Positions 1 through 56,629 of a stretch of DNA of 64,000 nucleotides are shown piece by piece. Below the pieces are notes generated by a model. It saw nothing but the letters and a program-made list of their open reading frames with translations, had not been told where the DNA came from and ran no database searches. The stretch lies in assembly GCA_963980225.1 (NCBI GenBank), contig CAXBYW010000001.1, forward strand, positions 35,301 through 99,300. The letters are read 5' to 3'. This stretch comes from an uncultured bacterium. Its GTDB lineage: Bacteria > Patescibacteriota > Microgenomatia > UBA1400 > MFAQ01. How positions within the stretch are numbered: position 1 is the first letter of the stretch; the number at the start of each line of letters is the position of its first letter. The translations under genes were made by a program, and so were the position numbers.

Positions 1-2
1 GT

Positions 3-674
3 TTTTCTGTCTCTGTAAACAAGGGTTTTAAAGCTTCTGACTCAGACTTTGTCCTACTTTTAAACAACGACGTTTACCCCACTAAACCCTATCTAGAAAA
101 AGCTTTAAAACACTTTCAAGACCCAAAGGTTTTTGCCGTCACCTTAAACGAAAAAAACTCTTCTTGGCCAAAAGTATCTTGGAGCAAGGGTAAGTTTCAG
201 TACACTCAAGGGGAAGACAAAACAAAAGTTCGCCACACACCTTGGGCTTCTGGTGGCAGCGCCATATTCAAAAAATCAATCTGGGATGAGCTTGGTGGTC
301 TAAACGAGATCTACTCACCCGGTTACTGGGAAGACATCGACATCGGTTGGCGAGCTTGGAAACAAGGCTACAAGATTATCTGGGAACCAGACGCAACCGT
401 AGTTCATCAACACGAATCTTCTTTTAAAAAACTAGATCAAAACTGGCTTAATCTAATAAAACAAAGAAACGAGCTGTTATTCATCTGGCAAAACTTCTCC
501 AACCCTAAATACGTTCTGTCTCACCTGTGGTTTTTGCTCTCCTACACCCTAACTCATCCAGGATTTTCAAAGGTTATTTTTGCAGCCACCAAAAGTCTTT
601 CTCAGTTCAAGCGTATAAAAAATGCTAAGCTCTCAGATACAGAGGTATTAAAAATAAGTAATCAACTCCTATGA
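3..674 (+). CDS. Glycosyltransferase family 2, C-terminal part; the 5' end is cut by the window edge
   Basis: Frame-3 ORF is open from the window start to TGA at 672-674. The translation (…WASGGSAIFKKSIWDELGGLNEIYSPGYWEDIDIGWRAWKQGYKIIWEPDATVVH…) is typical of the GT2 catalytic domain C-terminal region. The stop overlaps the next ATG (ATGA). Confidence 0.6.
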   Translation, partial: FSVSVNKGFKASDSDFVLLLNNDVYPTKPYLEKALKHFQDPKVFAVTLNEKNSSWPKVSWSKGKFQYTQGEDKTKVRHTPWASGGSAIFKKSIWDELGGLNEIYSPGYWEDIDIGWRAWKQGYKIIWEPDATVVHQHESSFKKLDQNWLNLIKQRNELLFIWQNFSNPKYVLSHLWFLLSYTLTHPGFSKVIFAATKSLSQFKRIKNAKLSDTEVLKISNQLL

Positions 675-1477
675 AGTTCGACATCTCAATAATTACTATC
701 CCTTACAAGTCAGAAAAACACATAGGTCCCTTACTGGACTCCATAAAAAAGTCTAAAGACGGTTTGAAAAAACAAGTTATCGTTATCGACAACTACGGCC
801 AAGAGGACAAATCAGCCCAGATTGCCAAAGACCATCCAATAAAACCCATTGTTTTAGAGCCAGGAGCAAACCTTGGTTTTGCTAAAGGAGTCAATCTAGG
901 TTTAGAAAAAGCTACAGGTAAGTACATATTTCTAATCAACCCAGACACCACCTTAGTCGGAAACGCTCTTAAGGATCTATATGATTTTGCTGAAAAGCAG
1001 GAAGTCTTAGGTGCCGTAGTTCCAAGTTTAGTTTTCCCAGACAACAAAGCTCAACCATCAGTCATGAGGCTCCCTAATATAGGAAACGCTTTTAAACACT
1101 ACTTCCTAGGTTACAAAAACCATTTCGGTAAATACTTGCCAAAGGGAAAAGTCGCTAAGGTAGAAGTGGCTGTCATGGCTGCCTTCCTCATACCTGCAAA
1201 GGTGATTAAACAAATAGGTGAGTTAGATAAACGGTTTTTTCTTTACTACGAAGATGTAGAATTTTGCCACCGACTTTTAAAAGCCAATCTACCAATCTAC
1301 TATTTATCAAAGGCCAAGGTAAAACATGTCCATGGTGCTAGTGCTAACTTTGTCAGTCACTTAAAAAGCCCACTAGCCAAATCTGCCCAGATCTACCACG
1401 GTAGAGTAGGGTCCTTCCTTTTAAATTGTGTTCTTTGGTCGGGTCAAAAATGGCAAAAGTTCATATTACGTAAATGA
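671..1477 (+). CDS. GT2 glycosyltransferase (WbbL/rhamnosyltransferase-like)
   Basis: 268 aa. N-terminal ISIITIPYKSEKHIGPLLDSI…VIDNYGQED and LGFAKGVN motifs of the GT2 nucleotide-sugar-binding fold. ATGA overlap with upstream gene. Confidence 0.7.
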   Translation: MKFDISIITIPYKSEKHIGPLLDSIKKSKDGLKKQVIVIDNYGQEDKSAQIAKDHPIKPIVLEPGANLGFAKGVNLGLEKATGKYIFLINPDTTLVGNALKDLYDFAEKQEVLGAVVPSLVFPDNKAQPSVMRLPNIGNAFKHYFLGYKNHFGKYLPKGKVAKVEVAVMAAFLIPAKVIKQIGELDKRFFLYYEDVEFCHRLLKANLPIYYLSKAKVKHVHGASANFVSHLKSPLAKSAQIYHGRVGSFLLNCVLWSGQKWQKFILRK

Positions 1478-2610
1478 AAACCATCCTTAGTAAGCTTGCT
1501 TCAATCAAGTACTTGCTTCTTCTAGCCTTCTTTGTAAGATTATTTTTTATATATTTCCAGTACTCTGGTGATGTAGGTAATCATCTAGTGTGGGGTAGAG
1601 GAGCACTAGAAGGGACCTTAGGTTTCTACAATAAATCCTTTTCTGGTTTCAATCAGCCAAACTATCCACCTCTCACCATTCTTTTATTTTCTTTCTCGGC
1701 CTGGCTTTACCAGCTGTTTCAAAATTTAATTCTTTTCATAAACCAGGCAGTTCCCCTTTTTCCTTCGAAAATCGTTCCTCTCATGGAGACTCTAAATATG
1801 CAGGCTGCCTTTTTAAAACTACCAGCTATCTTAGCTGACCTAGGTATCGGCTGGTTAATTTACAAGTTAGCTCCCGTTAAAAAAACTGGCACAAAACTTC
1901 TACTATCCAGTCTCTACCTCTTTAATCCAGCCATAATTTATATAAGTACAATCTGGGGTCAGATAGAGTCAATTCCAGTTTTCTTTATCCTTTTATCTTT
2001 ATATCTTATTAAACGTAACTATCTTTACTCCCATGTTTTCTTTACCCTAGCCATCCTTTCCAAGCAAACCGCTCTTTGGATTCTACCTGTTTTTCTCGTT
2101 TTATGGTTAAAAAATAAACCTCTAAAAGTCTTTTTTAAAGGAATCCTTCTGCAGGTCATAGTCTTCATCTTGTTATATCTTCCCTTTACTTTAAGTCTCA
2201 CAGAACCATTTAAACTATATCTTGAAACTTTATCCGGTTCTTCTGCCTTGGTTTCAGATGCCGCTTGGAACATCTGGTATTTTATTTATCCACCTCAAAC
2301 CCTAGACTCTACTTTGTTGCTAGGGTTGTCCATTCGTCTCTGGTCGATTTTACTTATCCTGTCTTCTGTTGTTTTTATAGTCTTCAACTTACTTAAAAAA
2401 AAGATCTCCCTTTATCCATCTCTATTTTGGCTTTCCATGGTTGCCTTTTTCTTACAGACCAGGGTTCATGAACGCCATCTATTTCCAGCTCTTGTCTTCT
2501 TGTTACTAATTAACTTTAAAAACAAAAATTATCTTTATTTATCTTTTACTGGTCTAACCTTGTATCATATGTTTAACCTATACCAAAGCCTAGCACTACC
2601 GTTCATATGA
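1474..2610 (+). CDS. Polytopic membrane protein, candidate GT-C glycosyltransferase (DUF2029/GT87-like)
   Basis: 378 aa with about 9 predicted TM helices. N-terminal loop GDVGNHLVWGRGALEG…FY…NYPPL resembles the first-loop motif of GT87/DUF2029 membrane mannosyltransferases. Translationally coupled to flanking GT genes. Confidence 0.4.
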   Translation: MKTILSKLASIKYLLLLAFFVRLFFIYFQYSGDVGNHLVWGRGALEGTLGFYNKSFSGFNQPNYPPLTILLFSFSAWLYQLFQNLILFINQAVPLFPSKIVPLMETLNMQAAFLKLPAILADLGIGWLIYKLAPVKKTGTKLLLSSLYLFNPAIIYISTIWGQIESIPVFFILLSLYLIKRNYLYSHVFFTLAILSKQTALWILPVFLVLWLKNKPLKVFFKGILLQVIVFILLYLPFTLSLTEPFKLYLETLSGSSALVSDAAWNIWYFIYPPQTLDSTLLLGLSIRLWSILLILSSVVFIVFNLLKKKISLYPSLFWLSMVAFFLQTRVHERHLFPALVFLLLINFKNKNYLYLSFTGLTLYHMFNLYQSLALPFI

Positions 2611-4244
2611 TCTATTTAATACTTACCCTTGCTGCTTTCCTAAGACTTTTTCAACTAGGAGGTCTCCCTATCTCCCTTTTTGGTGATGAAATCGACGTGG
2701 GCTATCACGCTTGGTCTTTAGTCACCACAGGTCGTGACTACATGGGTAACTTGCTCCCAACCTACATCCAGAGCCTGGCAGAATGGCGTGCACCTCTTTT
2801 AATGTATGTCACCGCTCCATTCATCAAATTACTAGGCCCCACACCTTTTGCTGTTCGTCTGCCCGTAGCTCTTCTGGGGGTTCTCAACATCTACCTTATT
2901 TACTTATTAGCCAGAAAGCTATTTAAAAGTAAGTATGTTGGTCTTCTGTCAGCTCTAATTCTTGCTCTCACACCTTGGCACATCCATTACTCTAGAGCGG
3001 CTTTCGAGTCCACCCTTCTTCTCACTCTTCTTCTGTCCGGCACCTTGTTTTTTGTTGTTAAACGTTACTCCTTATCAATATTAAGCTTCATTCTTACTTT
3101 ATATACCTACTCAACCGCTAACCTCTTTACTCCGCTACTTGCCCTATCCTTGTTTTTAATCTACAAAAGTAAAGATACAACTGCCAAGCTTTTTAAGAAG
3201 TCATGCCTACTTCTTTTACTACTACCCATCGCTTACCACCTTACTCTAGGTCAAGCGGCCGGTCGCTTCAGTCTCGTTAGTGTATTTAAAGATAAAGAAA
3301 TAACCTACGACATAATCAACCAACGCACCTCACCTTGGGTTGACCAAAATGATGTTGAAGAAAAAATATTCCACAACAAGGCCATCTCTTATGCTGGCAA
3401 AGTGGGCTCAAACTACCTATCTGCTTTTTCTCCTCAGTTCTTGTTCATCTCTGGTGACCCTAACTTCAGACACTCAGTAGGTAGATTTGGAGAACTTCTC
3501 TGGGCCACCGCACCATTTTTACTTCTTGGGTTTGTTATTTTAGTTAAAAATATCAGAAAGAAAGAAAACAAATTGATCTTGGCTTGGCTTTTACTATCTC
3601 CCATCCCTTCTGCTCTTACTTTTGATGGCGCTATGCACGCTACCCGCTTAATTCTTATGCTTCCACCTTTAGTCATGATCACTGCCTTGGGTATAAAGCA
3701 CATCTCTGCTTTGGTAACCAACAAAAAGATATTCAAGGTCTACGCCTTTATATTCTTTCTCATCTTAGCTCTAAGTTCTAGAGCCTACTGGCATCGCTAC
3801 TCATTCCACTACAAATTTGAATCAGCTCGTCACTGGCATGATGGTTACCAAGAAATCGGTAACAAGCTAGCACCAAGGTTAGAATCAGCCGGGAGAGTTT
3901 TTATAAACAACACCTACGAACCATCACTATTAAAGTTTGCCTTTTTTGCCAAGTATCCACCCGTCAAGTTCCAGCAAGATTTTACAGGAGATGTTCCAGA
4001 AGAAAACATAATACCAGGCTTTGACGGTTTCAAGTTTGCAGACAAGTACTACTTTGGTAATGCAAGAAACTTAAGCGACCTATTTAAAATTCTAGAGCCA
4101 GGTGATATCTACTTAGCCGTTCAAAGCAAAGAAGTGCCAGGGGACTGGGACTGGTCAAAGGAACCACCACAAGAACTAAAGGTTTTAGACTACACTAAGG
4201 ATGTATTTAACTCTCCGCTTTTTTATCTAGTTTCTCCTCGATAA
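2607..4244 (+). CDS. ArnT/PMT-like GT-C glycosyltransferase (GT39/83-like), tandem paralog 1 of 5
   Basis: 545 aa. N-terminal LRLFQLGGLP…DEIDVGYHAWSLVTTGRD, the DE loop motif of PMT_2/ArnT-like enzymes, and AVRLPVALLGVL. Polytopic membrane domain plus C-terminal soluble domain of about 200 aa. Confidence 0.75.
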   Translation: MIYLILTLAAFLRLFQLGGLPISLFGDEIDVGYHAWSLVTTGRDYMGNLLPTYIQSLAEWRAPLLMYVTAPFIKLLGPTPFAVRLPVALLGVLNIYLIYLLARKLFKSKYVGLLSALILALTPWHIHYSRAAFESTLLLTLLLSGTLFFVVKRYSLSILSFILTLYTYSTANLFTPLLALSLFLIYKSKDTTAKLFKKSCLLLLLLPIAYHLTLGQAAGRFSLVSVFKDKEITYDIINQRTSPWVDQNDVEEKIFHNKAISYAGKVGSNYLSAFSPQFLFISGDPNFRHSVGRFGELLWATAPFLLLGFVILVKNIRKKENKLILAWLLLSPIPSALTFDGAMHATRLILMLPPLVMITALGIKHISALVTNKKIFKVYAFIFFLILALSSRAYWHRYSFHYKFESARHWHDGYQEIGNKLAPRLESAGRVFINNTYEPSLLKFAFFAKYPPVKFQQDFTGDVPEENIIPGFDGFKFADKYYFGNARNLSDLFKILEPGDIYLAVQSKEVPGDWDWSKEPPQELKVLDYTKDVFNSPLFYLVSPR

Positions 4245-4731: not shown

Positions 4732-6378
4732 ATGATAAAAAAGGGTTTAATCATAGTTTTAATTTTGGGTGCAGTTTTAAGACTGGTATCTTTGGGACAG
4801 GTCCCCGCAGGCATCTCTCCGGATGAAGTCTCTCAAGGATACAGCGCCTACTCTCTTTTAAAGACGGGTCAAGACGAATGGGGACTATCATGGCCCTTAA
4901 CCTCCTTTAGATCGTTTGTAGACTACAAGGCTCCTCTACAGACCTATTTAATGATCCCTTCAGTTGCTGTTTTTGGCCTAAATGAGTTTGCCGTTCGTCT
5001 CCCCTCAGCTATCTTTGGCATACTAGCCATCTACGTTGTTTACTTACTCACCAGTGAGTTGTTCAACAAAAAAACGGGTCTAGTCGCTGCCTTTCTCTTA
5101 GCCATCTCTCCTTGGCACATCCAGTTCTCTCGCACCGCTCTAGAGGTCAATCTTTCTTCCTTTCTTTTTCCCTTAGGTCTGTACCTTTTCCTAAAAGGCC
5201 TTAAAAAACCAAAGACCCTAATTCTTGCAAGTTTAGTCTGGGGATTAAACCTTTACTCGTATCACGCCGCTAAGTTCTTTCTCCCTCTGTTCTTAGTACC
5301 TTTAGTTCTCATCAATCTAGAATCGCTTAAAAAAATAAAGGTAAAACAACTCACCATTCCCCTAGCACTCCTTTTATTTTTCTTACTACCCTCTCTTTAT
5401 CTAAGTTTCTTTAGTCCCGTCGGTGCCAGAAACAAAGACTTAATCATCACGAACTTGAATCAATCCCAACTAGAGTCAATCTCAAGCGAGCAGTATCTCT
5501 CACCTTTAAATAAAATATCTCCTCAACTAACCCGAGTCTTTCACAACAAAGCGATCTACATAGCTGATCAGTTTGCCAGTAACTACCTGACCTACCTTAC
5601 TCCCACATTTTGGTTTACAGAAGGAGGCAGCGAAACCACCTACTCGATTATTCCTGGTAGGGGACTTCTATATCTCTGGCAACTACCATTTATTATCTTA
5701 GGTTTAGTAAGCTTGCTGTCCATAAAAAACAAAAAGACCAAAGCAATTTTACTTTCCTGGATCTTACTTGCCGCTATTCCGGCTGCTTTAACCAAAGAAG
5801 GCTATCGCCCCAACAGGGCAGGGTCATTCTTAGGATTATGGGAAATCATCACCGCTTTTGGTTTAGTCCAACTACTCAAACTACCAGCAAGATACAAAAA
5901 AGCTACCCATTACATATTAGGCATAGTCATCCTAGCCTCATCTGTTCTATATATAGAAGACTACTGGCTTGCCTCACCCATTAGGTTCCCCAACAGCCTA
6001 TCTTATGGCTACCGTGACTTGATGACTAAGCTAGTCCCCTTAGAAGAAGAATTTGACGAGATAATAATAAATAGGGGCACTCAGTCCCAGTCCTTTGTCG
6101 CTTTTTACAAGAAGCTAGATCCAGTTATTTTTCAAAGTTACTCATCTGATTGGTGGAAAAGGTTTGAAAAGACAGATCTTTTATACCTAGACATGTTAGA
6201 TGACTATCAGTTAGAGAATTACAGATTCAAGACAATCCACTTACCAGAGGACTTAGGGGAGCACACACTACTAGTCTTACCGGCCAAAACTTTAGATCAT
6301 CAGTACCTGCCTTTTGTCTTTGACACCGTCTTTTATCCCAACAGGGAACCGTTCCTTTATTTACTTAAAAGCAAATGA
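4732..6378 (+). CDS. ArnT/PMT-like GT-C glycosyltransferase, tandem paralog 2
   Basis: 548 aa. LRLVSLGQVPAGISPDEVSQGYSAYSLLKTGQDEWG, FVDYKAPLQTYL, AVRLPSAIFGILAIY. C-terminal motif YPNREPFLY. TACAAT at 4718-4723, 8 nt upstream of the ATG. Confidence 0.75.
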   Translation: MIKKGLIIVLILGAVLRLVSLGQVPAGISPDEVSQGYSAYSLLKTGQDEWGLSWPLTSFRSFVDYKAPLQTYLMIPSVAVFGLNEFAVRLPSAIFGILAIYVVYLLTSELFNKKTGLVAAFLLAISPWHIQFSRTALEVNLSSFLFPLGLYLFLKGLKKPKTLILASLVWGLNLYSYHAAKFFLPLFLVPLVLINLESLKKIKVKQLTIPLALLLFFLLPSLYLSFFSPVGARNKDLIITNLNQSQLESISSEQYLSPLNKISPQLTRVFHNKAIYIADQFASNYLTYLTPTFWFTEGGSETTYSIIPGRGLLYLWQLPFIILGLVSLLSIKNKKTKAILLSWILLAAIPAALTKEGYRPNRAGSFLGLWEIITAFGLVQLLKLPARYKKATHYILGIVILASSVLYIEDYWLASPIRFPNSLSYGYRDLMTKLVPLEEEFDEIIINRGTQSQSFVAFYKKLDPVIFQSYSSDWWKRFEKTDLLYLDMLDDYQLENYRFKTIHLPEDLGEHTLLVLPAKTLDHQYLPFVFDTVFYPNREPFLYLLKSK

Positions 6379-8048
6379 AGCTTTTAAAAAAACCTTGGGT
6401 TGCCTTACTACTAATTACTTTCTTTGCTTTTGGTCAAAGGTTTTTTAATATATCCTCAAATCCTCCAGCTTTAAACTGGGACGAAGTCAGCCATGGCTAC
6501 AACGCTCTTTCAATCTTAAAGACGGGTGCAGATGAATGGGGTGTAAGGTTTCCCTTAATATTTAAAGCCTTCGGTGACTACAAACTTCCTTTATATATCT
6601 ATCTAACCGCCATCCCAGTATATTTTCTAGGGTTAACTACCACCGCCGTCCGTTTAGTTTCTGTTTTAGCCGGCACCCTAGCCATTCCTGGTATCTATCT
6701 ATTAACCAATCAACTATTCCCTAAGAAAAAATCACTACCCTTTTTGGTCGCCTTCCTTTTAGCTATCAATCCTTGGCACTTCTTTATATCAAGACCTGCT
6801 TTAGAAGCCAATCTAGCTTTAACCTTAATCATCTTTGGTTTTTACTGTTTACTTAAGGCTTTTAAAAATCCTAAGTTCTATTTACCGTCATCTATCTTGT
6901 TAGGTCTGTCTCTTCATACATACAATGTCTCTCGTGTCTTTGTTCCCCTCCTTCTTATTATCTTCTTTATCATCTACCGTCCCAAGTTTAAATTTGACCT
7001 AGTCCGCACCATCTCAGTCGCTATCATCACTCTTTTCTTCTCCATAGTCGCTTATCAAGTTTTTTCTGGCAGTGGTACTGCTCGCTACTCCAAAATATCT
7101 ATTCTCTCAGACTCAGCCGTTTATCAGTTAGGTTTATCTAGAGCAGACAGTTCTCTACCTCCACTTTTGGCTAAACTTCGTTTTAATCGCCCAATTTATT
7201 TTTTATCCGAGTTTGCTAAATACTACCTATCTTACTTCTCTCCAAACTTTATCTATCAATCTCAAGGTGCTCAGTATCAGTTTGCCATCCCGGGTAAAAA
7301 TCTATTCACCTTACCAGTCAGTATCTTAAGTTTAATTGGCGGGCTCTATCTACTGCTAAAAGAAAGATCTAAATCTACCTATCTTTTGTTCTCCTGGCTT
7401 TTACTATCTCCAGTCGGGGCCGCTCTAACAGCTGACCCGCCTCAAGCCATACGTCCAAACCCCATGATTCCAGCAGTTATAATTCTTGCTAGCATTGGTT
7501 TTTACTGGGTAGTTAGTCTTTTTAAAAAGCGTCGTTGGGCACAAGTTGCTATATCAGTATCATTAATTTTAAGCTGCTTACTAGGCTATATCCGCTATCT
7601 AGACTCTTACTACCAAGAGTATCAAACCAAATATGCCTGGTCCTGGCAGTATGGTCATGAAGAGACGCTAGAGTACATAGAAGAAAACAAAGATGATTAC
7701 GACAGGGTTATCTTTACCAAGTACTACGGTGAGCCTCACATCTTCTACGCCTTTTTCACCAATCTTGACCCTAAAAATCTCCAACCTGGTGGTGACAACA
7801 TTCGTTTCAAGAAAACAGACTGGTTCTGGACAGATAGAGTAAATACCACCTACTTTGTTAATGACTGGGAGATTCCTAAGCTACTAGAAGACACCCTTCC
7901 TCTAGAAAGTGGGGGACAAGTAGCTTTAGAAGATAGTCTATTGGTTTTCTCTCCTCAGAGTCTCCCCCAAAACGTAAAGATCTTAAAAACCATCAGCTTC
8001 CAAAACGATCTACCGGTCTTCTATATAGCTATCCTTGACAAAGACTGA
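6375..8048 (+). CDS. ArnT/PMT-like GT-C glycosyltransferase, tandem paralog 3
   Basis: 557 aa. NWDEVSHGYNALSILKTGADEWG, FGDYKLPLYIYL, AVRLVSVLAGTLAI. ATGA-coupled to paralog 2. Confidence 0.75.
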   Translation: MKLLKKPWVALLLITFFAFGQRFFNISSNPPALNWDEVSHGYNALSILKTGADEWGVRFPLIFKAFGDYKLPLYIYLTAIPVYFLGLTTTAVRLVSVLAGTLAIPGIYLLTNQLFPKKKSLPFLVAFLLAINPWHFFISRPALEANLALTLIIFGFYCLLKAFKNPKFYLPSSILLGLSLHTYNVSRVFVPLLLIIFFIIYRPKFKFDLVRTISVAIITLFFSIVAYQVFSGSGTARYSKISILSDSAVYQLGLSRADSSLPPLLAKLRFNRPIYFLSEFAKYYLSYFSPNFIYQSQGAQYQFAIPGKNLFTLPVSILSLIGGLYLLLKERSKSTYLLFSWLLLSPVGAALTADPPQAIRPNPMIPAVIILASIGFYWVVSLFKKRRWAQVAISVSLILSCLLGYIRYLDSYYQEYQTKYAWSWQYGHEETLEYIEENKDDYDRVIFTKYYGEPHIFYAFFTNLDPKNLQPGGDNIRFKKTDWFWTDRVNTTYFVNDWEIPKLLEDTLPLESGGQVALEDSLLVFSPQSLPQNVKILKTISFQNDLPVFYIAILDKD

Positions 8049-11616: not shown

Positions 11617-11626
11617 TTACCTTGCT

Positions 11627-16741: not shown

Positions 16742-16771
16742 CCCCCACAGATATCCTGTGGGGGTTTTTTT
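16742..16771 (+). terminator. Rho-independent terminator
   Basis: 9-bp GC-rich stem CCCCCACAG / CTGTGGGGG, loop ATATC, then TTTTTTT. Confidence 0.75.
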
Positions 16772-31667: not shown

Positions 31668-31668
31668 A

Positions 31669-42284: not shown

Positions 42285-42299
42285 TCAACTAAACATACA

Positions 42300-43744: not shown

Positions 43745-43764
43745 TTCTGATACAATCAAGGCAT

Positions 43765-44400: not shown

Positions 44401-44951
44401 AGGTAACATTCAAAATACTTTTAAGCTTAGTTTATCTACTAGGTGTTTTCTATCTAGTACTACCAGACCCTATTTACCCAGATCTATCCCTAGCGACACT
44501 GTCAGACGAACCAGGTGATACATGGCAAAATCCAGACCAAAAAGCTTTCTTCTCAGATAAAACCAGACAAGAAGTTTTAGAAGAATTACAGCAGTCATTC
44601 TCTCTATCATTTTTAAAAGGATATCTACCTTCATTTAGACTAAACTATCGTCCAGAAGAATCAACCCAGTTTGTTAGGGAACAGTTAAATAGTTACTATT
44701 TGGAAGAGATAGTACACCCTCTAAGAGAATCCTTATACGTAAATGGCTGGGAACCACAAAATGCTCCTTACTGGCAGACTGTACCAGAAAATAAGCGGCC
44801 CACTATTCAAATAGACGGTACTTACTACAACTCTAAAATCACCCTAAGGCCAGTTTACTCTCAAGTTTGGGCAAGAATACTTATCTGGTCATTAATCTTC
44901 CCTTTAAGTTTTTTAGTTACAAAATCACTTAAAAGAAGTTTTTTAAGCTAA
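44397..44951 (+). CDS. Hypothetical protein with N-terminal and C-terminal hydrophobic segments
   Basis: 184 aa. ATGA-coupled to the acetyltransferase. Confidence 0.4.
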   Translation: MKVTFKILLSLVYLLGVFYLVLPDPIYPDLSLATLSDEPGDTWQNPDQKAFFSDKTRQEVLEELQQSFSLSFLKGYLPSFRLNYRPEESTQFVREQLNSYYLEEIVHPLRESLYVNGWEPQNAPYWQTVPENKRPTIQIDGTYYNSKITLRPVYSQVWARILIWSLIFPLSFLVTKSLKRSFLS

Positions 44952-49772: not shown

Positions 49773-50683
49773 TGCCCAAAAAAAACGAGCTAGCCATTAT
49801 CATTGTCAGCTACAACACAAGTAAGCTTTTAGATGACTGTCTTACTTCTATTTATAAAGCCGAACAACCAAAAGGTGGGCTAGAAGTCGTCGTTGTCGAT
49901 AACGACTCAAAAGACGACAGTGTTGCAATGACCAAAAAGAAGTTTCCTCAAACAAAAGTAGTTGCCAGTAAGGAAAACCTAGGTTTTGCTAAGGGTAATA
50001 ACGTTGGTGTCGACAAAACAAACTCAGACTACATTTTGTTTTTAAATTCTGACACAGTCATCGAGAAAGATAGTTTAACCAGGCCTTTAAAGTATCTAAA
50101 AAGACATCCAGAGGTTGGCGCTGTAACAGTCAAGCTGTTTTTAGCCGACGGGTCGATAGATTACGATAACCACCGTGGTTATCCCGACCCTTGGACTTCC
50201 TTCTGTCACTTCACTGGCATCTCAAAGCTCTTCCCAAATTCAACCTTCTTAAATAACTATCATCTAGGTAGGAAGAACTTAAACAAGATTCACCAAGTCC
50301 CTATGACAGCTGGTTCTTTTATGATGATGCCATCCAAAGTATTTAAAAAAGTCGGCCGTTGGTGTGAAGACTACTTCTTCTATGGTGAAGATCTAGATCT
50401 CTGCCACCAAATTAACAAGGCCGGTTACAAGATAATTTACTACCCTAAGACCACAACACTTCACTTGAGAGGGGCTTCATCGGGTTTAAGGAAAGAAACA
50501 AAAAAGATTGCTAAGCCTCCTAAGGAAACCAGGATTAAAGTGGCAAAGTCTTCAATTAGCGCCATGAAAACTTTTTACAAGAAGTTCTACACCGATCAGT
50601 ATCCCAAGGTTGTTACCTGGGTCATTCTTAGTGGCATTACCATCATGGGTAAATTCAGGGTTTTAAAGCACAAGTTAACATAA
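49772..50683 (+). CDS. GT2 glycosyltransferase (WbbL-like)
   Basis: [21 protein letters not shown]…[12 protein letters not shown]…[10 protein letters not shown]…LFLNSDTV. Confidence 0.7.
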
Positions 50684-50692
50684 AGACATTTT

Positions 50693-51796
50693 ATGCGTAT
50701 AGGAATCGATGCCAGGCTTTACGGTAGTAAACACACTGGTATTGGTAGATATACTAAAAACTTGATTTTAGCTTTAGCAAAAAAAGACAGGAAAAACTCA
50801 TACGTCATATTTGGCAGTCAAGAGATTAAAGAGGAAATCGAAAGCTTAAAAAAATTTGAGTTTGTTAAATTAACTACCCCCATATATTCACTTGCTGAAC
50901 AGGTAATTAATCCGTTTGTATTTTCTCGCGCCAAGCTAGACATGCTGCACGTTCCCCACTTTAACGCCCCCATCTTCTATCCTGGCAAGCTTGTTATCAC
51001 TATTCACGATCTTATTAAGCATATCTCTACCGGTAAAGACTCCACCACCCACTCAACCGGCATCTACTGGATAAAACAATTAGCTTATCGTTTTATAGTT
51101 TTTGTAAATATTCACAAAGCTAAAGTTATCATTACTCCAAGTAAGTTCTGGCAAGACTATTTAGTCAATAACTACAATCTTAACTTTAAAAAAGTTCATG
51201 TAACTTATGAAGCTGTAGACAAAACACTAAAGTCGAAAAAAGGACAAAGCCCTAAAAACACCTTGAAAAAATACAATCTCGATAAGCCATTTATTATCTA
51301 CACTGGAAATCTATATCCTCATAAAAACATTAATTTCTTAATTAAAGCTGTGGGTGTATTTAATAATTCTCACAAACATCAGCTTACCTTAGCGATTGCT
51401 TGCGCTAGAAGTGTGTTTGAAAAAAGACTAACTAAAGACAGTGACATCCGTTATCTAGGGTACGTTCCAGACAACGATCTAGCCATGTTGTATTCCCAAT
51501 CACTAGCCTTGGTTCACCCCTCATTAATAGAAGGGTTTGGATTAACTGGCCTGGAGGCAATGGCAGCTGGGTTACCAGTTCTCTCTTCAGACGCAACCTG
51601 TCTACCTGAGGTTTATGGTGAAGCTGCTCTTTATTTCGATCCCTACAATCAAAAAAGCTTAATACTAAGACTAGAGCAAATAATGGAAGATAGAGACTTA
51701 CTAAAAGACTTAAAGGAAAAAGGCTACTTGAGGGTAAAAAGTTTTTCTTGGGATCGTACGGCCAAGGAAACCATTAAAGCCTATCAGGCCATATGA
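50693..51796 (+). CDS. GT4 glycosyltransferase
   Basis: EGFGLTGLEAMAAGLPVLSSDATCLPEVYGEAALYFDP. Confidence 0.75.
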   Translation: MRIGIDARLYGSKHTGIGRYTKNLILALAKKDRKNSYVIFGSQEIKEEIESLKKFEFVKLTTPIYSLAEQVINPFVFSRAKLDMLHVPHFNAPIFYPGKLVITIHDLIKHISTGKDSTTHSTGIYWIKQLAYRFIVFVNIHKAKVIITPSKFWQDYLVNNYNLNFKKVHVTYEAVDKTLKSKKGQSPKNTLKKYNLDKPFIIYTGNLYPHKNINFLIKAVGVFNNSHKHQLTLAIACARSVFEKRLTKDSDIRYLGYVPDNDLAMLYSQSLALVHPSLIEGFGLTGLEAMAAGLPVLSSDATCLPEVYGEAALYFDPYNQKSLILRLEQIMEDRDLLKDLKEKGYLRVKSFSWDRTAKETIKAYQAI

Positions 51797-52890
51797 AAGT
51801 AGCTTTAGTTTACGATCAAGTTAATAAGTTTGGTGGTGCTGAACGACTATTACTATCTTTACACAAGATATATCCTAAGGCTCCACTTTACACCCTAATT
51901 CACAACCCAAAGTCCTCTTCTTGGGCAAAAGGGTTCTCCGTTATCGCAAGTCCTTTAAATAAAATCAAGTTTCTCAGAAAACACCACCAATGGCTCGCGC
52001 CTATTGCCCCCATGATGTTTGAGACATTTAACTTTGACAACTTTGATGTGGTAATAAGCATAACCAGAGACAACGCTAAAGCAGTAGTCACTAAACCAGG
52101 AACACTACATATTTGTTACTGCCTGACACCAACGAGATACTTTTGGGGTGATGTAAGGGAGTATGATCACGACATAAAGATCAAAATCCTCCCAAATTTT
52201 TTAAAAAAATACTTTAAAAACATGGATTTACTCATTTCCAGAAGACCAGACCGATATATGGCGATTTCTAAAGAGGTTAAAAACAGAATAAAGACCCATT
52301 ACAATCAGGATTCATTAGTTGTCTACCCTCCAATAGGGGACAAATTTTACTCTAAATCCAAGCCAAAACCACTTAATAAAAGAGACTACTATTTATTAGT
52401 CGGCCGTTTGGAGTCTTACAAAAAAGTAGATCTAGTTGTTGACGCCTTCAACCAACTACCAAGCAAAACACTCAAGGTGGTTGGCTCAGGATCTGAAAGG
52501 AAAAAATTAAAAAAAGTAGCCGAATCTAACATAACGTTCTCTGGTCAAGTGACTGATCAGGAACTAATCAATCTTTATGCTAACGCTAAAGCCATTATCT
52601 TTCCTCAAATAGAAGACTTTGGTTTAGTGCCTTTAGAAGCCCAAGCATCAGGCACTCCTGTAATAGCTTTTAATAAGGGGGGCGCCAAGGAAACAGTCAT
52701 TGATGGTCAAACCGGTATCTTTTTTAACCACCAGACCGTCGACAGTCTATCAAGCGCTATAAAAAAATTAGAATCAGGAAATCATCAGATCACTCCAAGG
52801 CAATGTGTTCTCAATGCCGAGAAATTCGCCGAAGATAGATTTTTAAAAGAATTTCGTGATAAAGTAGATAAACTATGGTCAAAAGACTAA
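51793..52890 (+). CDS. GT4 glycosyltransferase
   Basis: EDFGLVPLEAQASGTPVIAFNKGGAKETVIDGQTGIFF. Confidence 0.75.
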   Translation: MKVALVYDQVNKFGGAERLLLSLHKIYPKAPLYTLIHNPKSSSWAKGFSVIASPLNKIKFLRKHHQWLAPIAPMMFETFNFDNFDVVISITRDNAKAVVTKPGTLHICYCLTPTRYFWGDVREYDHDIKIKILPNFLKKYFKNMDLLISRRPDRYMAISKEVKNRIKTHYNQDSLVVYPPIGDKFYSKSKPKPLNKRDYYLLVGRLESYKKVDLVVDAFNQLPSKTLKVVGSGSERKKLKKVAESNITFSGQVTDQELINLYANAKAIIFPQIEDFGLVPLEAQASGTPVIAFNKGGAKETVIDGQTGIFFNHQTVDSLSSAIKKLESGNHQITPRQCVLNAEKFAEDRFLKEFRDKVDKLWSKD

Positions 52891-54005
52891 AAAAACCTGA
52901 ATACCTAAAACACACTTACATCTGCCTTTTGGCTGGTGGCACAGGCACTCGACTATGGCCTAGATCAAGAAAAAAGACTCCTAAGCAGTTTGCTCCAATT
53001 TTAGGCAGACTCACCCTTTTTCAACAAACAGTCAAGCGTATAAGAAACCTAGTTCCTCTATCCAGGGTCTATGTCATAACCAACGAGCGTTACACTAAAG
53101 ACATCCAAAGACAGATACCGTTAATCCCTAACAAGAACATTATCGCTGAACCAGAAAAAAAGAATACTGCCATGGCAATGGGAGTAGCCGCTGCTTGGAT
53201 TCACAAAAAAGATCCGAAGGCTGTAGTCATCAATCTAGCTGCCGACCACTTAATTCAAAAGCCTAAAAAATATATCAAAGTCCTAAAGGGTGCCGCCAAA
53301 ACCGCTTTCACTCAAGATAAGCTGGTAGCTGTAGGCGTGGTTCCTACTTTCCCTCACACGGGCTTAGGATACATCCATTTTGGTAAGAAGATCCCGAGTA
53401 CGAGTTCTCTCCCAACTTACAAAATGAAGGGATTTACTGAAAAACCAAATCTCCCAACTGCCAAACGTTTTTTAAAGACCAAGCAGTATCTCTGGAATGC
53501 CAATAACTACGTCTACACCACCAAAAGAATAATTGAGGAGTTTAAAATCCACGCTCCAGACATCTATCGTCACGTCTACAACGTATACAAAGCCGTCGGC
53601 ACCAAGCAACAGAATAAAGTTCTAAAAAAAGAATATAGATTAGTAAGAGAAGACTCCATCGACTACGCCATCTCTGAAAAAACAAAAGAAATGATCGTAA
53701 TTCCCGGCGATTTTGGCTGGAGAGACATTGGTGACTGGAAAATAATCTACGACATATCTAAAAAAGACAAAAACGGAAATGTTGTTATTAATCACGGCTC
53801 CAACGGAGGTGAGCAAATAAACCTGGGTGCAAAAAACAATCTAATTCACTTTGACGATCAGCTTATTGCCACAGTAGGTGTCGAGAACCTAATCATAGTG
53901 GACACTGGCGACGCCTTGTTAATCTGCAATAAAGATAAAGCTCAGAACGTCAAAGAGTTAGTTAAATTACTAAAAGAAAAGAAAAACCTCTCAAAATACG
54001 TATGA
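52875..54005 (+). CDS. manC: Mannose-1-phosphate guanylyltransferase (GDP-mannose pyrophosphorylase)
   Basis: YICLLAGGTGTRLWPRSRKKTPKQF at the N-terminus (NTP_transferase). 376 aa. Confidence 0.7.
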   Translation: MVKRLKKPEYLKHTYICLLAGGTGTRLWPRSRKKTPKQFAPILGRLTLFQQTVKRIRNLVPLSRVYVITNERYTKDIQRQIPLIPNKNIIAEPEKKNTAMAMGVAAAWIHKKDPKAVVINLAADHLIQKPKKYIKVLKGAAKTAFTQDKLVAVGVVPTFPHTGLGYIHFGKKIPSTSSLPTYKMKGFTEKPNLPTAKRFLKTKQYLWNANNYVYTTKRIIEEFKIHAPDIYRHVYNVYKAVGTKQQNKVLKKEYRLVREDSIDYAISEKTKEMIVIPGDFGWRDIGDWKIIYDISKKDKNGNVVINHGSNGGEQINLGAKNNLIHFDDQLIATVGVENLIIVDTGDALLICNKDKAQNVKELVKLLKEKKNLSKYV

Positions 54006-54667
54006 GCTTAATCTATAACTCAACTAAGAGATTAATGGATATAGTCGCTTCCTTGATATTGGTAGTTCTATTTTTACCCATCTGGATAATAATCCCTCTT
54101 CTCATGAAGTTTGAGCATCCAGAATATCCAATTCTTTATACACCAGAGAGGGTAGGTAAAGATGGTCGTCTTTTTAAGCTTCTAAAATTTAGAAGCATGA
54201 TAATGTTAAAAGGAAAAAATGGCAACCTTGAACATGCGGTTAATGTCTGGAAAGACAACAAGGCCTTGTTTGAAAAATACAAAAAATCTGGTTGGAAGTT
54301 AGAAATAGACAGTGATCCGCGAATAACCAAGTTAGGCAAGTTCTTGCGTCAAACGTCAATTGATGAAATGCCACAAGTCTTTAATATCTTAAAAGGGGAC
54401 ATGAGCTTGGTCGGCCCTAGAGCTTATGTGCAACCAGAAATAGATGACGCCATAAAAAGATTTGGTAAGGAAAATATCGGTCCTTTTATAAAATCCAGCT
54501 ACAGCGTTAAACCTGGCTTGACAGGGCCGTGGCAGGTTTCCGGCAGAAATAAGATATCTTGGAACAAGAGAGTCAAGATGGATGCCGCCTATGCAAAACG
54601 ACACTCAATACTAGAAGATTTGTTAATCATTTTAAAAACACCGTTTGCCATGATCAGTAAGTGGTAA
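54002..54667 (+). CDS. Polyprenyl-phosphate phosphoglycosyl transferase (Bac_transf 'sugar transferase', initiating enzyme)
   Basis: KRLMDIVASLILVVLFLPIW… FKLLKFRSM… DEMPQVFNILKGDMSLVGPRA… GLTGPWQVSGRN. Confidence 0.8.
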   Translation: MSLIYNSTKRLMDIVASLILVVLFLPIWIIIPLLMKFEHPEYPILYTPERVGKDGRLFKLLKFRSMIMLKGKNGNLEHAVNVWKDNKALFEKYKKSGWKLEIDSDPRITKLGKFLRQTSIDEMPQVFNILKGDMSLVGPRAYVQPEIDDAIKRFGKENIGPFIKSSYSVKPGLTGPWQVSGRNKISWNKRVKMDAAYAKRHSILEDLLIILKTPFAMISKW

Positions 54668-54679
54668 ACTAAATAAAGT

Positions 54680-56629
54680 ATGGATCTGCCTAAAAAAACA
54701 ACGATTAACGAAGCTTCCACCCCGGAAGAGAAGCAACAGCCTCCAGTAGAGGAAAAAGTTTCTAATTCAGATACTTCAAAAAAGAAATACCTAAAAATAG
54801 CTAAAAAGGTAGGTCTTGGTCTTTTGATCTTTGTCTTAGTTGGTGGTCTTTTTGGAGCCTTGGCGGGCTTCACTTTAAGGTCTCCGGTCAAAGCGACTTT
54901 AGAGAGTGTCAATAATCTGATGACAGATTTCCAAAATAAAGATCTTGTAAGTGCCAAAAGCTCACTTGAAGTAGTAAAAGCAGACATAAAAGTCTTAGAC
55001 AGTAAATACAAGCTGGTTGGCTGGACCAAAATAATTCCTTTCTTGGGGGGATACACCAAAGACGGTCAAAGTGTCATCACAGCATCAGACTCACTTGTCA
55101 AAGCAATAGACCTAACAATTATTGCCTTAGAACCATACTCTGACCTTTTGGGTTTCAAGTCGGATTCTGAGCAGCAACTAGATAAAACAGGGGATGAGTC
55201 AATCGAGAACAGAATCATCTTCATGGCAGAGACCTTAGATAAAATCTCACCAGAACTAGAAGGTATTACTCAAGAGCTATCCAAAGTTGGTGAAGAGATA
55301 CTCTCCATCAATCCCAAGAGATATCCAAAGAAACTTGCTGGTAAGGAAGTAAGGTCAAAGATTGTCTCAGTCCAGACTGCCCTAGGCGAGTCGGTCCAAC
55401 TTTTCTCTCAAGCCAAACCACTAATTAAATTACTTCCAACTCTTCTTGGTAACCCAGATGCAAAAACATATCTTCTTCTCTTTCAAAATGACGCCGAGAT
55501 AAGAGCCACAGGAGGCTTCTTAACAGCCTATGCTTATCTAGACATGGCTCAGGGAAAACTAAAACCAGGCAACTCATACGACATCTACAATCTAGATGCT
55601 CGTTGGGCCAGTAACCTTAAGGCGCCTGATCCAATCAAAAAATACCTAAAAGAGTCAAGTTGGAATTTAAGGAATATAAACATGTCACCAGACTTCAAGG
55701 TGTCCATGGATCAATTCTTGGAGATATATAGAGACATTCCAGGTACCAGACAAATAGACGGTATCATCGCCATAGACACTTCTGTACCAGTTGGTTTCTT
55801 AGACATCATTGGCCCAATTGGAGTTGGTGGTTGGGGCAACTTCTCCTCAGAAATCGACCCTCGTTGTGACTGTCCTCAGGTGGTCTACGCCTTAGAAGAA
55901 ATAGCCGACAGGCCCACTTATGAAATCAGACTAGATAGAAAAGCAGTGTTAGGTCCTTTAATGCACTCTCTAATGGCCAACGCCATGGGAAGTCCCAAAC
56001 ACATGTGGCCAGAACTTCTAAACTCACTTTTGACTTCAATCCAAGAAAAACACCTACTTTTCTACTTCCTTGATGAGGACTCTCAAAAAATAGCCGAGGA
56101 CTTCAACTCTGCTGGCAGAATAAAGGAATTTACTGGAGACTATCTTCACATAAATGACAGTAATTTTGGTGGCGCCAAGACAGATATGTTTCTAGAGAGA
56201 GAAGTGGAACAAGAAATAGAGATGGACGGAGACAAAATCATAAAAACAGTGACCTTAAGTTACAGTAATCCTCATAAGGGTTCCAACTGCAATCTAGAAG
56301 CCGGTCAGCTTTGTTTAAACGGTACATATAAAGACTGGGTTAGGATCTATGTTCCTCAGGGTAGTGAGTTAATTAGTGTTGTTGGTTCCGAAGATGAGGC
56401 AGAGACTGGTGAAGAACTAGGTAAAACTTATTTCTCGGCTTTCTTTACCATGAGACCTGAGTCATCAAGTAAATTAGTCTTCAAGTACCAGCTACCAAGT
56501 TTAAACACAGACGCTTATCAGTTGCTAATCCAAAAGCAACCAGGTAAGCCAACCATTAAACACAACATAATCTACAACGGGATACAACAAGAAATAGATC
56601 TCTCAACAGACACCACGCTTTCTCTTTAG
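54680..56629 (+). CDS. DUF4012 domain membrane-anchored protein
   Basis: N-terminal TM. LLLFQNDAEIRATGGFLTAYAYLDM matches the DUF4012 hallmark (N-x-AE-x-R-x-TGGF). Confidence 0.6.
   Translation: MDLPKKTTINEASTPEEKQQPPVEEKVSNSDTSKKKYLKIAKKVGLGLLIFVLVGGLFGALAGFTLRSPVKATLESVNNLMTDFQNKDLVSAKSSLEVVKADIKVLDSKYKLVGWTKIIPFLGGYTKDGQSVITASDSLVKAIDLTIIALEPYSDLLGFKSDSEQQLDKTGDESIENRIIFMAETLDKISPELEGITQELSKVGEEILSINPKRYPKKLAGKEVRSKIVSVQTALGESVQLFSQAKPLIKLLPTLLGNPDAKTYLLLFQNDAEIRATGGFLTAYAYLDMAQGKLKPGNSYDIYNLDARWASNLKAPDPIKKYLKESSWNLRNINMSPDFKVSMDQFLEIYRDIPGTRQIDGIIAIDTSVPVGFLDIIGPIGVGGWGNFSSEIDPRCDCPQVVYALEEIADRPTYEIRLDRKAVLGPLMHSLMANAMGSPKHMWPELLNSLLTSIQEKHLLFYFLDEDSQKIAEDFNSAGRIKEFTGDYLHINDSNFGGAKTDMFLEREVEQEIEMDGDKIIKTVTLSYSNPHKGSNCNLEAGQLCLNGTYKDWVRIYVPQGSELISVVGSEDEAETGEELGKTYFSAFFTMRPESSSKLVFKYQLPSLNTDAYQLLIQKQPGKPTIKHNIIYNGIQQEIDLSTDTTLSL

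Follow-up and report, generated by a model that had tools for sequence, protein, structure and literature searches.

A large glycosylation island with a conserved array of GT-C glycosyltransferase genes in a candidate phyla radiation bacterium

Introduction

In multi-component transmembrane glycosylation, a glycosyltransferase of the GT-A fold, sometimes with a separate transmembrane (TM) partner, makes a C55-P-sugar, and with a GtrA/Wzx-type flippase a glycosyltransferase of the GT-C fold transfers the sugar to a polymer outside the cell (PMC8035078). The characterised GT-C enzymes of this scheme are the PMT_2 proteins GacL, GtsC, CsdD/F and YkcB, or YfhO, and their targets are cell-wall polysaccharides and teichoic acids, not proteins (PMC8035078). 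In Streptococcus pyogenes GacI, the synthase of undecaprenyl-phosphate N-acetylglucosamine, is held in a complex and stimulated by the DUF2304 protein GacJ, and in Mycobacterium tuberculosis Rv3632 is the GacJ-equivalent partner of PpgS (10.1101/180810). Here we analyse a glycosylation island that fills positions 1-56629 of a 64,000-nucleotide stretch of contig CAXBYW010000001.1 (the window) and continues upstream of it.

A first-pass annotation of the window had proposed that this island encodes a lipid-linked glycosylation pathway acting outside the membrane, possibly for protein O-mannosylation and/or a lipoglycan. The polyprenol-P-sugar-synthase-like enzymes and the many GT-C proteins that we describe below bear out the extracytoplasmic, lipid-linked character of the pathway. 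The best reading of the island is a Wzx/Wzy-type pathway joined to multi-component transmembrane glycosylation like that of GacI/J/K/L, in which the GT-C-driven extracytoplasmic part is unusually large. On balance, we favour the view that it is a mosaic locus for an envelope glycopolymer or lipoglycan and not a dedicated protein O-mannosylation system. This view builds on direct observations: the families and folds assigned to the proteins, the order of the genes, their conservation and the contiguity of the sequence.

Results and Discussion

Composition of the island and its relation to described systems

Window positions 1-56629 contain about 53 tightly packed genes as judged by open reading frame (ORF) calling and Pfam, and all but four lie on the plus strand (Table 1). 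The packing is operon-like: 42 of the 53 gene junctions overlap or are separated by at most 20 bp, and many of them are 4-bp ATGA overlaps. Glycosyltransferases of soluble-type families number 18, comprising 11 of family 2 (GT2), one of which is cut by the window start, and seven of family 4 (GT4), which agrees with the approximate count of 18 made previously. Eight proteins score above the gathering threshold of PF13231 (PMT_2; starts 2607, 4732, 6375, 8354, 9994, 28901, 38475 and 47161), where at least seven ArnT/PMT-like GT-C enzymes had been claimed. When the two PIG-V-like proteins are added, and also g20319 and g24929, the window has 12 supported GT-C-fold genes and the whole island 14. 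The methyltransferases (starts 18764, 19561 and 32496), flippase, initiating phosphoglycosyl transferase (PGT), ManC, GalE, acetyltransferase and DUF4012 protein of the first-pass annotation were likewise recovered with Pfam or NCBIfam. The supposed ligase is a Wzy_C-domain protein; its match is marginal and its family could be that of polymerases, ligases or O-oligosaccharyltransferases (O-OTases). The window thus holds a priming PGT, a Wzx and a marginal Wzy together.

Like S. pyogenes GacI/J/K/L, Bacillus anthracis GtsABC, Lactococcus lactis Csd and Bacillus subtilis CsbB/GtcA/YfhO, the island combines a polyprenol-P-sugar-synthase-like GT2 gene followed by that of a DUF2304 partner with a Wzx-type flippase and PMT_2/YfhO-type GT-C enzymes, all inside a polysaccharide locus. 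Every component of the multi-component scheme is co-located, with g16758 as the GT-A synthase, g17438 as its TM partner, g30411 as the Wzx flippase and many GT-C enzymes; which donor this flippase serves we only infer. Whereas the Gac, Gts, Csd and CsbB systems use one GT-C per decoration, no fewer than 14 are encoded in the island, at least 12 of them inside the window, including a fixed-order array of five old paralogs. It also differs from them in that our scans returned no GtrA-type flippase and no LytR_cpsA_psr (LCP) ligase, in its candidate phyla radiation (CPR) host, and in being known from its genes alone.

By analogy, the logic of the island resembles that of mycobacterial lipomannan/lipoarabinomannan (LM/LAM) and arabinogalactan (AG) assembly or of the ALG series in the endoplasmic reticulum (ER) lumen. 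The mycobacterial pathways (PimE, MptA/B/C, EmbA/B/C, AftA-D and Ppm1) also employ serial extracytoplasmic GT-C enzymes on polyprenol-P-sugars, and the PpgS-like GT2 of the island is paired with a DUF2304 partner as PpgS is with Rv3632. In contrast to the mycobacterial systems, the island has no arabinosyltransferase or GT87 match in Pfam and belongs to an unrelated lineage, and its genes are clustered whereas those of mycobacteria are dispersed. The island also recalls the Bifidobacterium longum 105-A eps locus, which also has a Bac_transf PGT beside DUF4012, GT2 and GT4 enzymes, a flippase and a Wzy_C-type protein. The adjacency of PGT and DUF4012 genes has been noted in a Bifidobacterium exopolysaccharide (EPS) locus (PMC5412050), and the DUF4012 family is enriched in CPR and Gram-positives (PMC6744442). 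Compared with the B. longum locus the island is about 3-4 times larger and has far more GT-C enzymes, and the scans of the window and fetched flanks returned no Wzz/tyrosine-kinase chain-length regulator.

A tandem GT-C array conserved among CPR genomes

The first part of the window is dominated by five tandem PMT_2 genes, g2607, g4732, g6375, g8354 and g9994. Their products are 29-36% identical to one another over the full length and have in common an invariant Asp-Glu pair after the first TM segment (TM1) and an SPWH..SR..E motif. Membership in the GT-C class is supported by the acidic motif after TM1, which is D27-E28 in the tandem paralogs and D39-D40 in the g20319 family, with 7-10 predicted TM segments. 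Family or fold similarity to GT-C enzymes was found for the eight PF13231 proteins, for g20319 by Foldseek and, marginally, for g14600 by PF04188.

The order of the genes between 1.4 and 24.2 kb is kept in four other genomes, as seen in the comparison across Patescibacteria that had been suggested as a check, and the orthologs are 34-70% identical against 27-36% between GT-C paralogs. In locus L101 of a Microgenomates-group genome, orthologs of g1474 and g2607 are followed by one extra GT-C gene and then by orthologs of g4732, g6375, g8354, g9994, g11528, g12475 and g14600, which are 46-66% identical to their window counterparts versus about 30% to other paralogs. The Woesebacteria locus L100 contains seven tandem GT-C genes followed by the same tail of GT2, GT4 and PIG-V-like genes, and in L102 the order is kept from g4732 onward. 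Locus L105 reads GT2, GT4, PIG-V-like, GT2, GacI-like GT2, DUF2304, GT2 and PMT_2, followed by two methyltransferases, the ortholog of g20319 with a further paralog of it, and then the g21923 and g22951 orthologs. Past 24.2 kb, gene content differs between genomes.

Because the orthologs are more similar to each other than the paralogs are, the GT-C array is ancient and lineage-wide rather than peculiar to this genome. The 1.4-24.2 kb block is likewise a conserved supra-operon of this CPR group and no recent or diversifying expansion, and the fact that each tandem paralog forms its own orthogroup argues for distinct, sequential functions. The number of GT-C genes, which had been called extreme for one locus, is therefore real as a count but is not an oddity of the organism, as the array is conserved and two other genomes have 6-7 such genes in tandem. 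Searches of the literature on GT-C enzymes, mannosyltransferases, ArnT and S-layer glycosylation in CPR/Patescibacteria found no description of these arrays. All classes of component in the island are known and large polysaccharide loci are common; what is new relative to the literature searched is the fixed-order array of 5-7 GT-C genes with its GT2/GT4/PIG-V-like/GacI-J/methyltransferase tail across CPR, together with two sizeable GT-C-fold families that have no family model and the share of a very small genome that is devoted to them.

The host is supported as a CPR (Patescibacteria) bacterium, probably of Microgenomates type. The best relatives of its GlyRS in a one-genome-per-species GTDB set are Patescibacteria, with at most 61% identity. 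For the array gene g9994, over 3242 relatives score E<=1e-10; among the matches listed, the nearest 119 clusters are 53-76% identical, and the named ones come from Collier-, Woese- and Wildermuthbacteria and the Microgenomates group. These relatives are in keeping with the CPR-like origin suggested in the first-pass annotation. When loci were anchored on GlyRS, the island lay beside it in none of 80, and L015 alone had genes for GT4, GT4 and DUF4012 nearby.

Two gaps interrupt the array. A decayed sixth GT-C paralog was looked for in both, of 487 bp and 305 bp, and no trace was found, nor does the 487-bp gap hold a remnant of the extra GT-C paralog that L101 has at this position. Within the 487-bp gap lies a 148-aa ORF (4207-4653, minus strand) with weak, sub-threshold HlyD/biotin-lipoyl-like matches, which several assemblies annotate as a gene. 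Between g6375 and g8354, in the gap of 305 bp, lies a 60-aa hydrophobic ORF (8114-8296, plus strand) with two predicted TM segments, on which gene callers disagree. Differing gene calls between assemblies had hinted at strain variation in the array; this was rejected, since the DNA is 99.97-100% identical and it is the gene callers that differ.

Inside the conserved block, L105:11713-13071 and L100:17729-19186 carry extra genes for methyltransferases, a carbamoyltransferase, a flavin adenine dinucleotide (FAD) oxidoreductase or a radical SAM enzyme, a hint that a shared glycan may be chemically modified in ways specific to each lineage.

Likeness of the array to protein glycosyltransferases

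The first-pass annotation proposed that the PMT-like GT-C enzymes mannosylate Ser/Thr residues of secreted proteins with polyprenol-P-mannose as donor. Several features are shared with the GT39 protein O-mannosyltransferases (PMTs) PMT1/2/4 and Rv1002c with DPM1: the GT-C fold, the invariant DE motif after TM1, GT2 enzymes resembling dolichol-phosphate-mannose synthases (DPMS) and a GDP-mannose supply through the ManC of the island. There are, moreover, eight PMT_2 proteins, PF02366 scores above cut-off in g2607 (27.9 bits) and g9994 (30.3 bits), and Pmt4 and Pmt2 are among the fold matches. The family models do not follow this reading. The NCBIfam Pmt equivalog NF058602 reached 15.5 bits against a cut-off of 800, the PF02366 matches are confined to these two proteins, cover the N-terminal part only (profile positions 3-176 of 245) and are weaker than those to PMT_2, and the Pfam scans returned no C-terminal PMT domain or MIR match, the similarity being limited to the generic N-terminal GT-C module. 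A sequence search of the PDB with a profile of the five tandem proteins found no solved PMT, and the fold matches spread equally over ArnT, oligosaccharyltransferases (OSTs), ALGs and Afts. It is also hard to explain 5-7 distinct conserved paralogs by a single type of protein mannosylation, and the bacterial PMT_2 enzymes characterised to date act on polysaccharides or teichoic acids (PMC8035078). Taken together, a protein O-mannosylation pathway seems to us quite improbable, and a 'PMT' or 'ArnT-like' label on a CPR protein should not be taken as a sign of protein O-mannosylation or of lipid A modification.

The array also has traits of OSTs, which bear on the idea of a general glycosylation system for S-layer proteins or pilins, where the Wzy_C protein would act as a PglL-like O-OTase and/or the tandem GT-C enzymes as OSTs, while the other genes build the lipid-linked glycan. 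The Wzy_C domain is common to O-OTases, and the marginal match in the island points to no specific family. One tandem protein, g8354, passes the STT3 N-terminal model (PF02516, 28.2 vs 24.5 bits), and the profile of the five matches short stretches of about 55-70 residues of archaeal AglB (E 4e-5), its best PDB sequence match, and of ArnT (E 0.03). An AWQYGF motif at residues ~417-422 of g9994, about 25 residues past the last TM segment, has its A, W, Y, G and F conserved at >=95% in 120 orthologs, at roughly the place where OSTs carry WWDYG; and the scans gave no LCP ligase that could attach a product to the wall. Against these points, the AglB match spans just ~55 residues of the TM core, no OST C-terminal domain match was returned, and AWQYGF lacks the Asp of WWDYG and varies among paralogs, its counterpart in the other four being a degenerate x-x-[YD]-G-[YHF]. 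No S-layer protein or pilin gene lies in or beside the island, and the domain resembling a carbohydrate-binding module (CBM) in g24929, discussed below, points to glycan acceptors. We give such a system a small chance, and a polysaccharide or lipoglycan product remains our preferred interpretation.

Predicted synthases of lipid-linked sugars

Three GT2 proteins of the island, g16758, g24233 and g28031, have no TM segment. Their best PDB match is the Dol-P-Man synthase of Pyrococcus (5mlz), with E-values of 5.4e-8, 2.4e-3 and 2.6e-8, respectively, and for g28031 this is the only match. The earlier label 'DPM1-like' for all three therefore appears right at the level of the family, though not as membership of an equivalog: g16758 aligns with the full length of NCBIfam PpgS but scores 73.7 bits where the equivalog cut-off is 370, and g24233 aligns over nearly its full length with AglJ and scores 54.6 bits where 325 are required. 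A means of anchoring to the membrane is apparent for g16758 in its DUF2304 partner, whose gene overlaps the 3' end of g16758, and no partner was identified for g24233 or g28031. Directly after the g24929 ortholog in L103 stands an ortholog of g24233 with 54% identity. Mannose is plausible as the lipid-linked sugar because ManC is present.

Between the DUF2304 gene and the next GT2 gene lies a gene for a 64-aa single-cluster ferredoxin (17779..17973, plus strand; CIGCFAC...CP; Fer4_13/Fer4_15 in precomputed annotations). It overlaps each neighbour by 4 bp and is translationally coupled on both sides. In the Woesebacteria locus L100 a B12-binding radical SAM gene takes its place.

GT-C-fold proteins outside recognised families

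Two PIG-V-like genes had been annotated downstream of the array. One of them, g14600, scores just above the PF04188 cut-off with a match to profile positions 60-205 of 443, and its L101 ortholog also has PF04188; the other, g13491, qualifies by paralogy to g14600 alone. A sequence search of the PDB with g14600 returned no match. The analogy to PIG-V and the glycosylphosphatidylinositol (GPI) pathway drawn in the first-pass annotation appears to hold at the level of family and fold and no further.

At least five additional GT-C candidates had also been listed, of which two, g20319 and g24929, are supported by predicted structure. The AlphaFold2 model of g20319 (pLDDT 90.7, pTM 0.91) returned GT-C enzymes as all of its top 30 Foldseek matches in the PDB (ArnT at 2.7e-5, PglB, STT3, DPY19, ALG9, Pmt4 and AftA), which indicates a GT-C fold. 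D39-D40 after TM1 is invariant in this family, whose homologs were found solely in CPR-type metagenomes. The 1024-aa g24929 is predicted to combine a GT-C fold with a C-terminal CBM-like β-sandwich; among the fold matches of g20319 and g24929 together are ArnT, OSTs, ALGs, Afts and Pmt2/Pmt4. Because a profile-profile comparison of these two families with the tandem GT-C profile was not significant, their GT-C nature is visible in the predicted structures only.

A word-indexed search found 20 relatives of g24929, whereas 2003 clusters at 50% identity came out of an exhaustive search with a profile, and 859 of these have E<=1e-30. Pfam scans of g24929 and eight further members returned no match, and g24929 is also without an NCBIfam match, so that these proteins of ~1000 aa are a candidate for a new curated family. 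The g24929-g24233 pair is kept in L103 beside PMT_2, Wzx and methyltransferase genes, and a homolog in Paenibacillus alba lies among ABC-transporter, GT2, Wzy_C and dTDP-rhamnose (rml) genes. These polysaccharide contexts and the predicted CBM-like domain favour glycan acceptors. In architecture, GT-C plus CBM-like domain, g24929 resembles the Emb/AftD arabinosyltransferases, but neither Pfam nor NCBIfam gave it any match; it would work like them at most and is not a member.

Five membrane proteins, g1474, g21923, g22951, g37300 and g39868, could not be assigned to a class. When they were compared singly with our own profiles by hhalign, the sole positive was the C-terminal domain of g39868, which is similar to the extracytoplasmic domain in the g24929 family (BLAST E 6e-5; hhalign probability 88.8%, E 2.5e-6). 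A relaxed Pfam scan (E<=5) of ten family-less proteins returned nothing, and PDB sequence searches with g14600, the DUF4012 protein, g1474, g22951, g39868 and g37300 returned nothing useful. The 10-TM protein g37300 is a flippase candidate by position only.

Extent, modularity and integrity of the island

Downstream the island borders on core genome (RecO, GlyRS, CutA1, MraZ, RsmH, FtsL and FtsI). On the 5' side it runs on for at least 9.3 kb beyond the window start (L096:1-9330), and the first gene of that stretch is a GT2 gene that runs past its end. The island is thus at least 66 kb long, and its 5' boundary lies further upstream.

The genes between ~17.4 and 27 kb have a GC content of 0.30-0.35 versus ~0.40 elsewhere in the window; this part (17400-27000) holds the DUF2304, GT2 and two methyltransferase genes, g20319 and the minus-strand g24233-g24929 pair. 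Such a dip might be expected if the glycosylation genes of several organisms had been joined by chimeric mis-assembly, one of the conditions under which the first-pass annotation would have fallen, and it is the single feature in favour of this. Exact-protein look-ups retrieved 19 contig stretches from about 10 public datasets that are 99.97-100% identical to the window over the full overlap. Their names follow three styles, ENA k141_ (MEGAHIT), ENA NODE_ (SPAdes) and Logan, and their break points differ. One contig of 109,240 bp carries the sequence unbroken from the first position of the window to where the fetched flank ends, and two further contigs, one of 355 kb and the longest of 526 kb, encode the same proteins. 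The assembly is genuine, we see practically no chance of a chimera, and the GC dip at ~17.4-27 kb is a real feature of the genome.

The dip could also mark one of several unrelated, adjacent glycan loci, namely the conserved core, an acquired low-GC module and an EPS or capsule locus, each with a separate product. Strand switches at 24.2 and 28.9 kb, synteny that holds for 1.4-24.2 kb with differing content downstream, and the other context of the g24929-g24233 pair in L103 and L104 fit this picture. It is opposed by the tight junctions between the blocks and by the low-GC region itself, which is in part (g16758-g22951) syntenic with the core block in L105. Moreover, about 66 kb of DNA hold one each of priming PGT, Wzx, ManC and GalE, and for this reason the modules probably share precursors and carriers. 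Separate products are in our judgement unlikely, and the idea overlaps with the mosaic envelope-glycan locus that we favour, in which the low-GC middle and the Wzx/Wzy part seem to be modules that vary more.

A proposed pathway for the island

Under the mosaic-locus interpretation, ManC and GalE would supply GDP-mannose and UDP-galactose, and the small PGT, partnered with DUF4012, would prime polyprenol phosphate. Cytoplasmic GT2 and GT4 enzymes, methyltransferases and the O-acetyltransferase would build and modify a lipid-linked oligosaccharide, which Wzx would flip and the Wzy_C protein would polymerise or ligate. In parallel, the three DPMS/GacI-like GT2s, one of them with its DUF2304/GacJ-like partner, would make polyprenol-phosphate monosaccharides. 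After flipping of these, the at least 12 GT-C-fold enzymes of the window, and two more upstream, would extend or decorate the glycan at the outer face of the membrane. The conserved, fixed order of the old GT-C paralogs suggests a stepwise assembly line of 5-7 enzymes for a glycoconjugate common to this CPR group. For this proposal we infer the sugar identities, the order of the steps, the flippase of the lipid-linked sugars and the acceptor, a polysaccharide or lipoglycan rather than protein.

Several observations weigh against this interpretation. Sugar specificity cannot be read from sequence, and the genes are the one source from which the product is deduced. The Wzy_C match is marginal and its domain occurs also in protein O-OTases; the STT3 N-terminal model accepts g8354, and among PDB sequences the tandem profile matches an archaeal OST best; and five membrane proteins have no class assignment. 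In Pfam scans of the window and the fetched flanks no Wzz, polysaccharide co-polymerase (PCP), tyrosine-kinase or LytR_cpsA_psr match was returned, and GtrA (PF04138) matched none of the proteins scanned, which leaves attachment, length control and the flipping of lipid-linked monosaccharides unaccounted for; Wzz/PCP and LCP/WaaL functions may be encoded elsewhere in the genome. Finally, to treat the whole island as a single pathway is an assumption, as GC content and synteny suggest several modules.

A broader proposal is more tentative, and we put it forward as a possibility that we would not yet bet on: Microgenomates-type CPR bacteria might assemble outside the membrane a glycoconjugate, for instance a lipoglycan or wall polymer, that is both complex and conserved. 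They would do so with PIG-V-like enzymes, two GT-C families unrecognised by Pfam/NCBIfam and an ordered line of 5-7 GT-C paralogs of ancient origin, encoded in one supra-operon that takes up several percent of a genome assumed to be ~1 Mb. The biochemistry of CPR envelopes is almost unknown and CPR bacteria are thought to live attached to host cells, and here no less than 66 kb of a reduced genome is given over to assembling surface glycans. The conserved core points to one elaborate envelope glycoconjugate, which could be sought directly in enrichments. If the proposal is true, the assembly line would be a bacterial counterpart of the mycobacterial LAM/AG or ER-lumen ALG pathways, and its product could be central to the episymbiotic cell surface.

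Remaining genes of the island

All features are collected in Table 1. ManC aligns with positions 4-351 of 467 of TIGR01479, which is the guanylyltransferase part only, and the PGT matches the catalytic C-terminal part alone of the WbaP/EPS models.

Table 1 Features of the glycosylation island (window positions unless L096 is given; bit scores with cut-offs where two values are shown)
Feature	Coordinates	Strand	Evidence
Another GT2, GT2, GT4 and 291-aa GT2 whose end is window 3-659	L096:1-9330		PF00535 (291-aa GT2)
PMT_2 (ninth), 446 aa	L096:1-9330	-	
YfhO-family GT-C, 772 aa	L096:1-9330		
Family-less pair: secreted 602-aa protein; 486-aa protein with 8 TM	L096:1-9330		
GT2, 3' part (291-aa gene starting upstream of window)	3..659	+	
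GT2, 268 aa	671..1477	+	PF00535 63.2 bits
g1474, polytopic membrane protein, 378 aa, ~7 TM, first gene of GT-C array	1474..2610	+	No Pfam/NCBIfam match; 46% ortholog at same position in L101
g2607, GT-C (PMT_2), tandem paralog 1	2607..4244	+	PF13231 41.1 bits; 50-58% orthologs in L100 and L101; invariant D27-E28 after TM1
g4732, GT-C (PMT_2), tandem paralog 2	4732..6378	+	PF13231 60 bits; 50-51% orthologs in L101, L102
g6375, GT-C (PMT_2), tandem paralog 3	6375..8048	+	PF13231 28.8 bits; ~51% orthologs, same order, L100/L101
g8354, GT-C (PMT_2), tandem paralog 4	8354..9997	+	PF13231 44.9 bits; 47-49% orthologs
g9994, GT-C (PMT_2), tandem paralog 5	9994..11616	+	PF13231 46.9 bits; most conserved of the five
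g11528, GT2, likely true start 11627 (283 aa)	11528..12478	+	PF00535 66.3 bits; 44-70% orthologs directly after GT-C array in L100, L101, L102, L105
g12475, GT4	12475..13494	+	PF00534 89.5 bits; 38-58% orthologs, same position
g13491, PIG-V-like polytopic protein	13491..14567	+	No own Pfam match; 33% identical to g14600, E 3.6e-29
g14600, PIG-V-like GT-C-type mannosyltransferase homolog	14600..15739	+	PF04188 24.0 vs 22.4 bits
Soluble protein, 283 aa	15865..16716	+	No Pfam match even at E<=5
g16758, TM-less GT2, GacI/PpgS/DPMS-like	16758..17456	+	PF00535 76 bits
g17438, DUF2304 protein, 114 aa, three TM, GacJ/Rv3632-like	17438..17782	+	PF10066 67.8 vs 25.5 bits
GT2	17970..18728	+	PF00535 106.7 bits; 37% ortholog, same position, L105
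Two S-adenosylmethionine (SAM) methyltransferases	18764-19564, 19561-20322	+	Methyltransf_11/25, 75-81 bits; 57-59% orthologs directly before g20319 ortholog in L105
g20319, GT-C-fold enzyme (predicted), 535 aa	20319..21926	+	No Pfam/NCBIfam family
g21923 and g22951, family-less polytopic membrane proteins	21923-22954, 22951-24249	+	Best sub-cut-off e.g. DUF1275 16.7 vs 25.4 bits; 34% and 43% orthologs after g20319 homologs in L105
g24233, TM-less GT2, AglJ/DPMS-like	24233..24922	-	PF00535 31.5 bits
g24929, polytopic GT-C-fold protein (predicted), 1024 aa, C-terminal CBM-like β-sandwich	24929..28003	-	No Pfam family
g28031, TM-less GT2, DPMS-like	28031..28843	-	PF00535 48.9 bits
GT-C (PMT_2)	28901..30394	+	PF13231 33.8 bits
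g30411, Wzx/MOP-family flippase	30411..31667	+	PF01943 80 bits; PF13440 61.3 bits
GT2, methyltransferase, GT4	31669-32493, 32496-33245, 33242-34267	+	Pfam
UDP-glucose 4-epimerase GalE	34264..35223	-	TIGR01179 equivalog 388.8 vs 262.3 bits; PF01370 192.6 bits
Two small bitopic paralogs, 185 and 182 aa	35364..36494	+	28% identical, E 1e-19; no Pfam match
GT2, first of four-gene sub-module 36579..41190	36579-37307	+	Pfam
g37300, 10-TM protein, between GT2 and PMT_2	37300-38478	+	
GT-C (PMT_2)	38475-39896	+	PF13231 above gathering score
g39868, membrane protein	39868-41190	+	C-terminal domain like that of g24929 family
GT4, GT4, CxxCxxCC protein, acetyltransferase, small bitopic protein	41187..44951	+	Pfam/NCBIfam
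WcaF-like hexapeptide O-acetyltransferase (the acetyltransferase of the row above)	starts 43765	+	
GT2	44965..45951	+	PF00535 72.3 bits
Wzy_C-domain protein (polymerase, ligase or O-OTase family)	45902..47164	+	PF04932 32.6 vs 31.7 bits, marginal; no NCBIfam match
GT-C (PMT_2)	47161..48576	+	PF13231 32.5 bits
GT4, GT2, GT4, GT4	48573..52890	+	Pfam
Mannose-1-phosphate guanylyltransferase ManC, without isomerase domain	52875..54005	+	PF00483 130.5 bits; ManC beta-helix 71.9 bits
Small monotopic priming PGT (Bac_transf)	54002..54667	+	PF02397 194.9 bits
DUF4012 protein, last island gene	54680..56629	+	PF13196 76.7 bits

Matches to 'GT4-conflict' (PF20706) are weaker than the ordinary GT4 matches, and a defence-system reading of them was rejected. 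Three family-less proteins of ~183 aa (35364-36494 and 44397-44951, plus strand), two of which are paralogs, each have a single TM segment at either terminus and might serve as accessory proteins or as anchors. Between a GT4 gene and the acetyltransferase gene, a 125-aa CxxCxxCC protein (43367-43744, plus strand; PF03692, putative zinc/iron-chelating) is encoded, which is the second metal/Fe-S protein in the island besides the ferredoxin.

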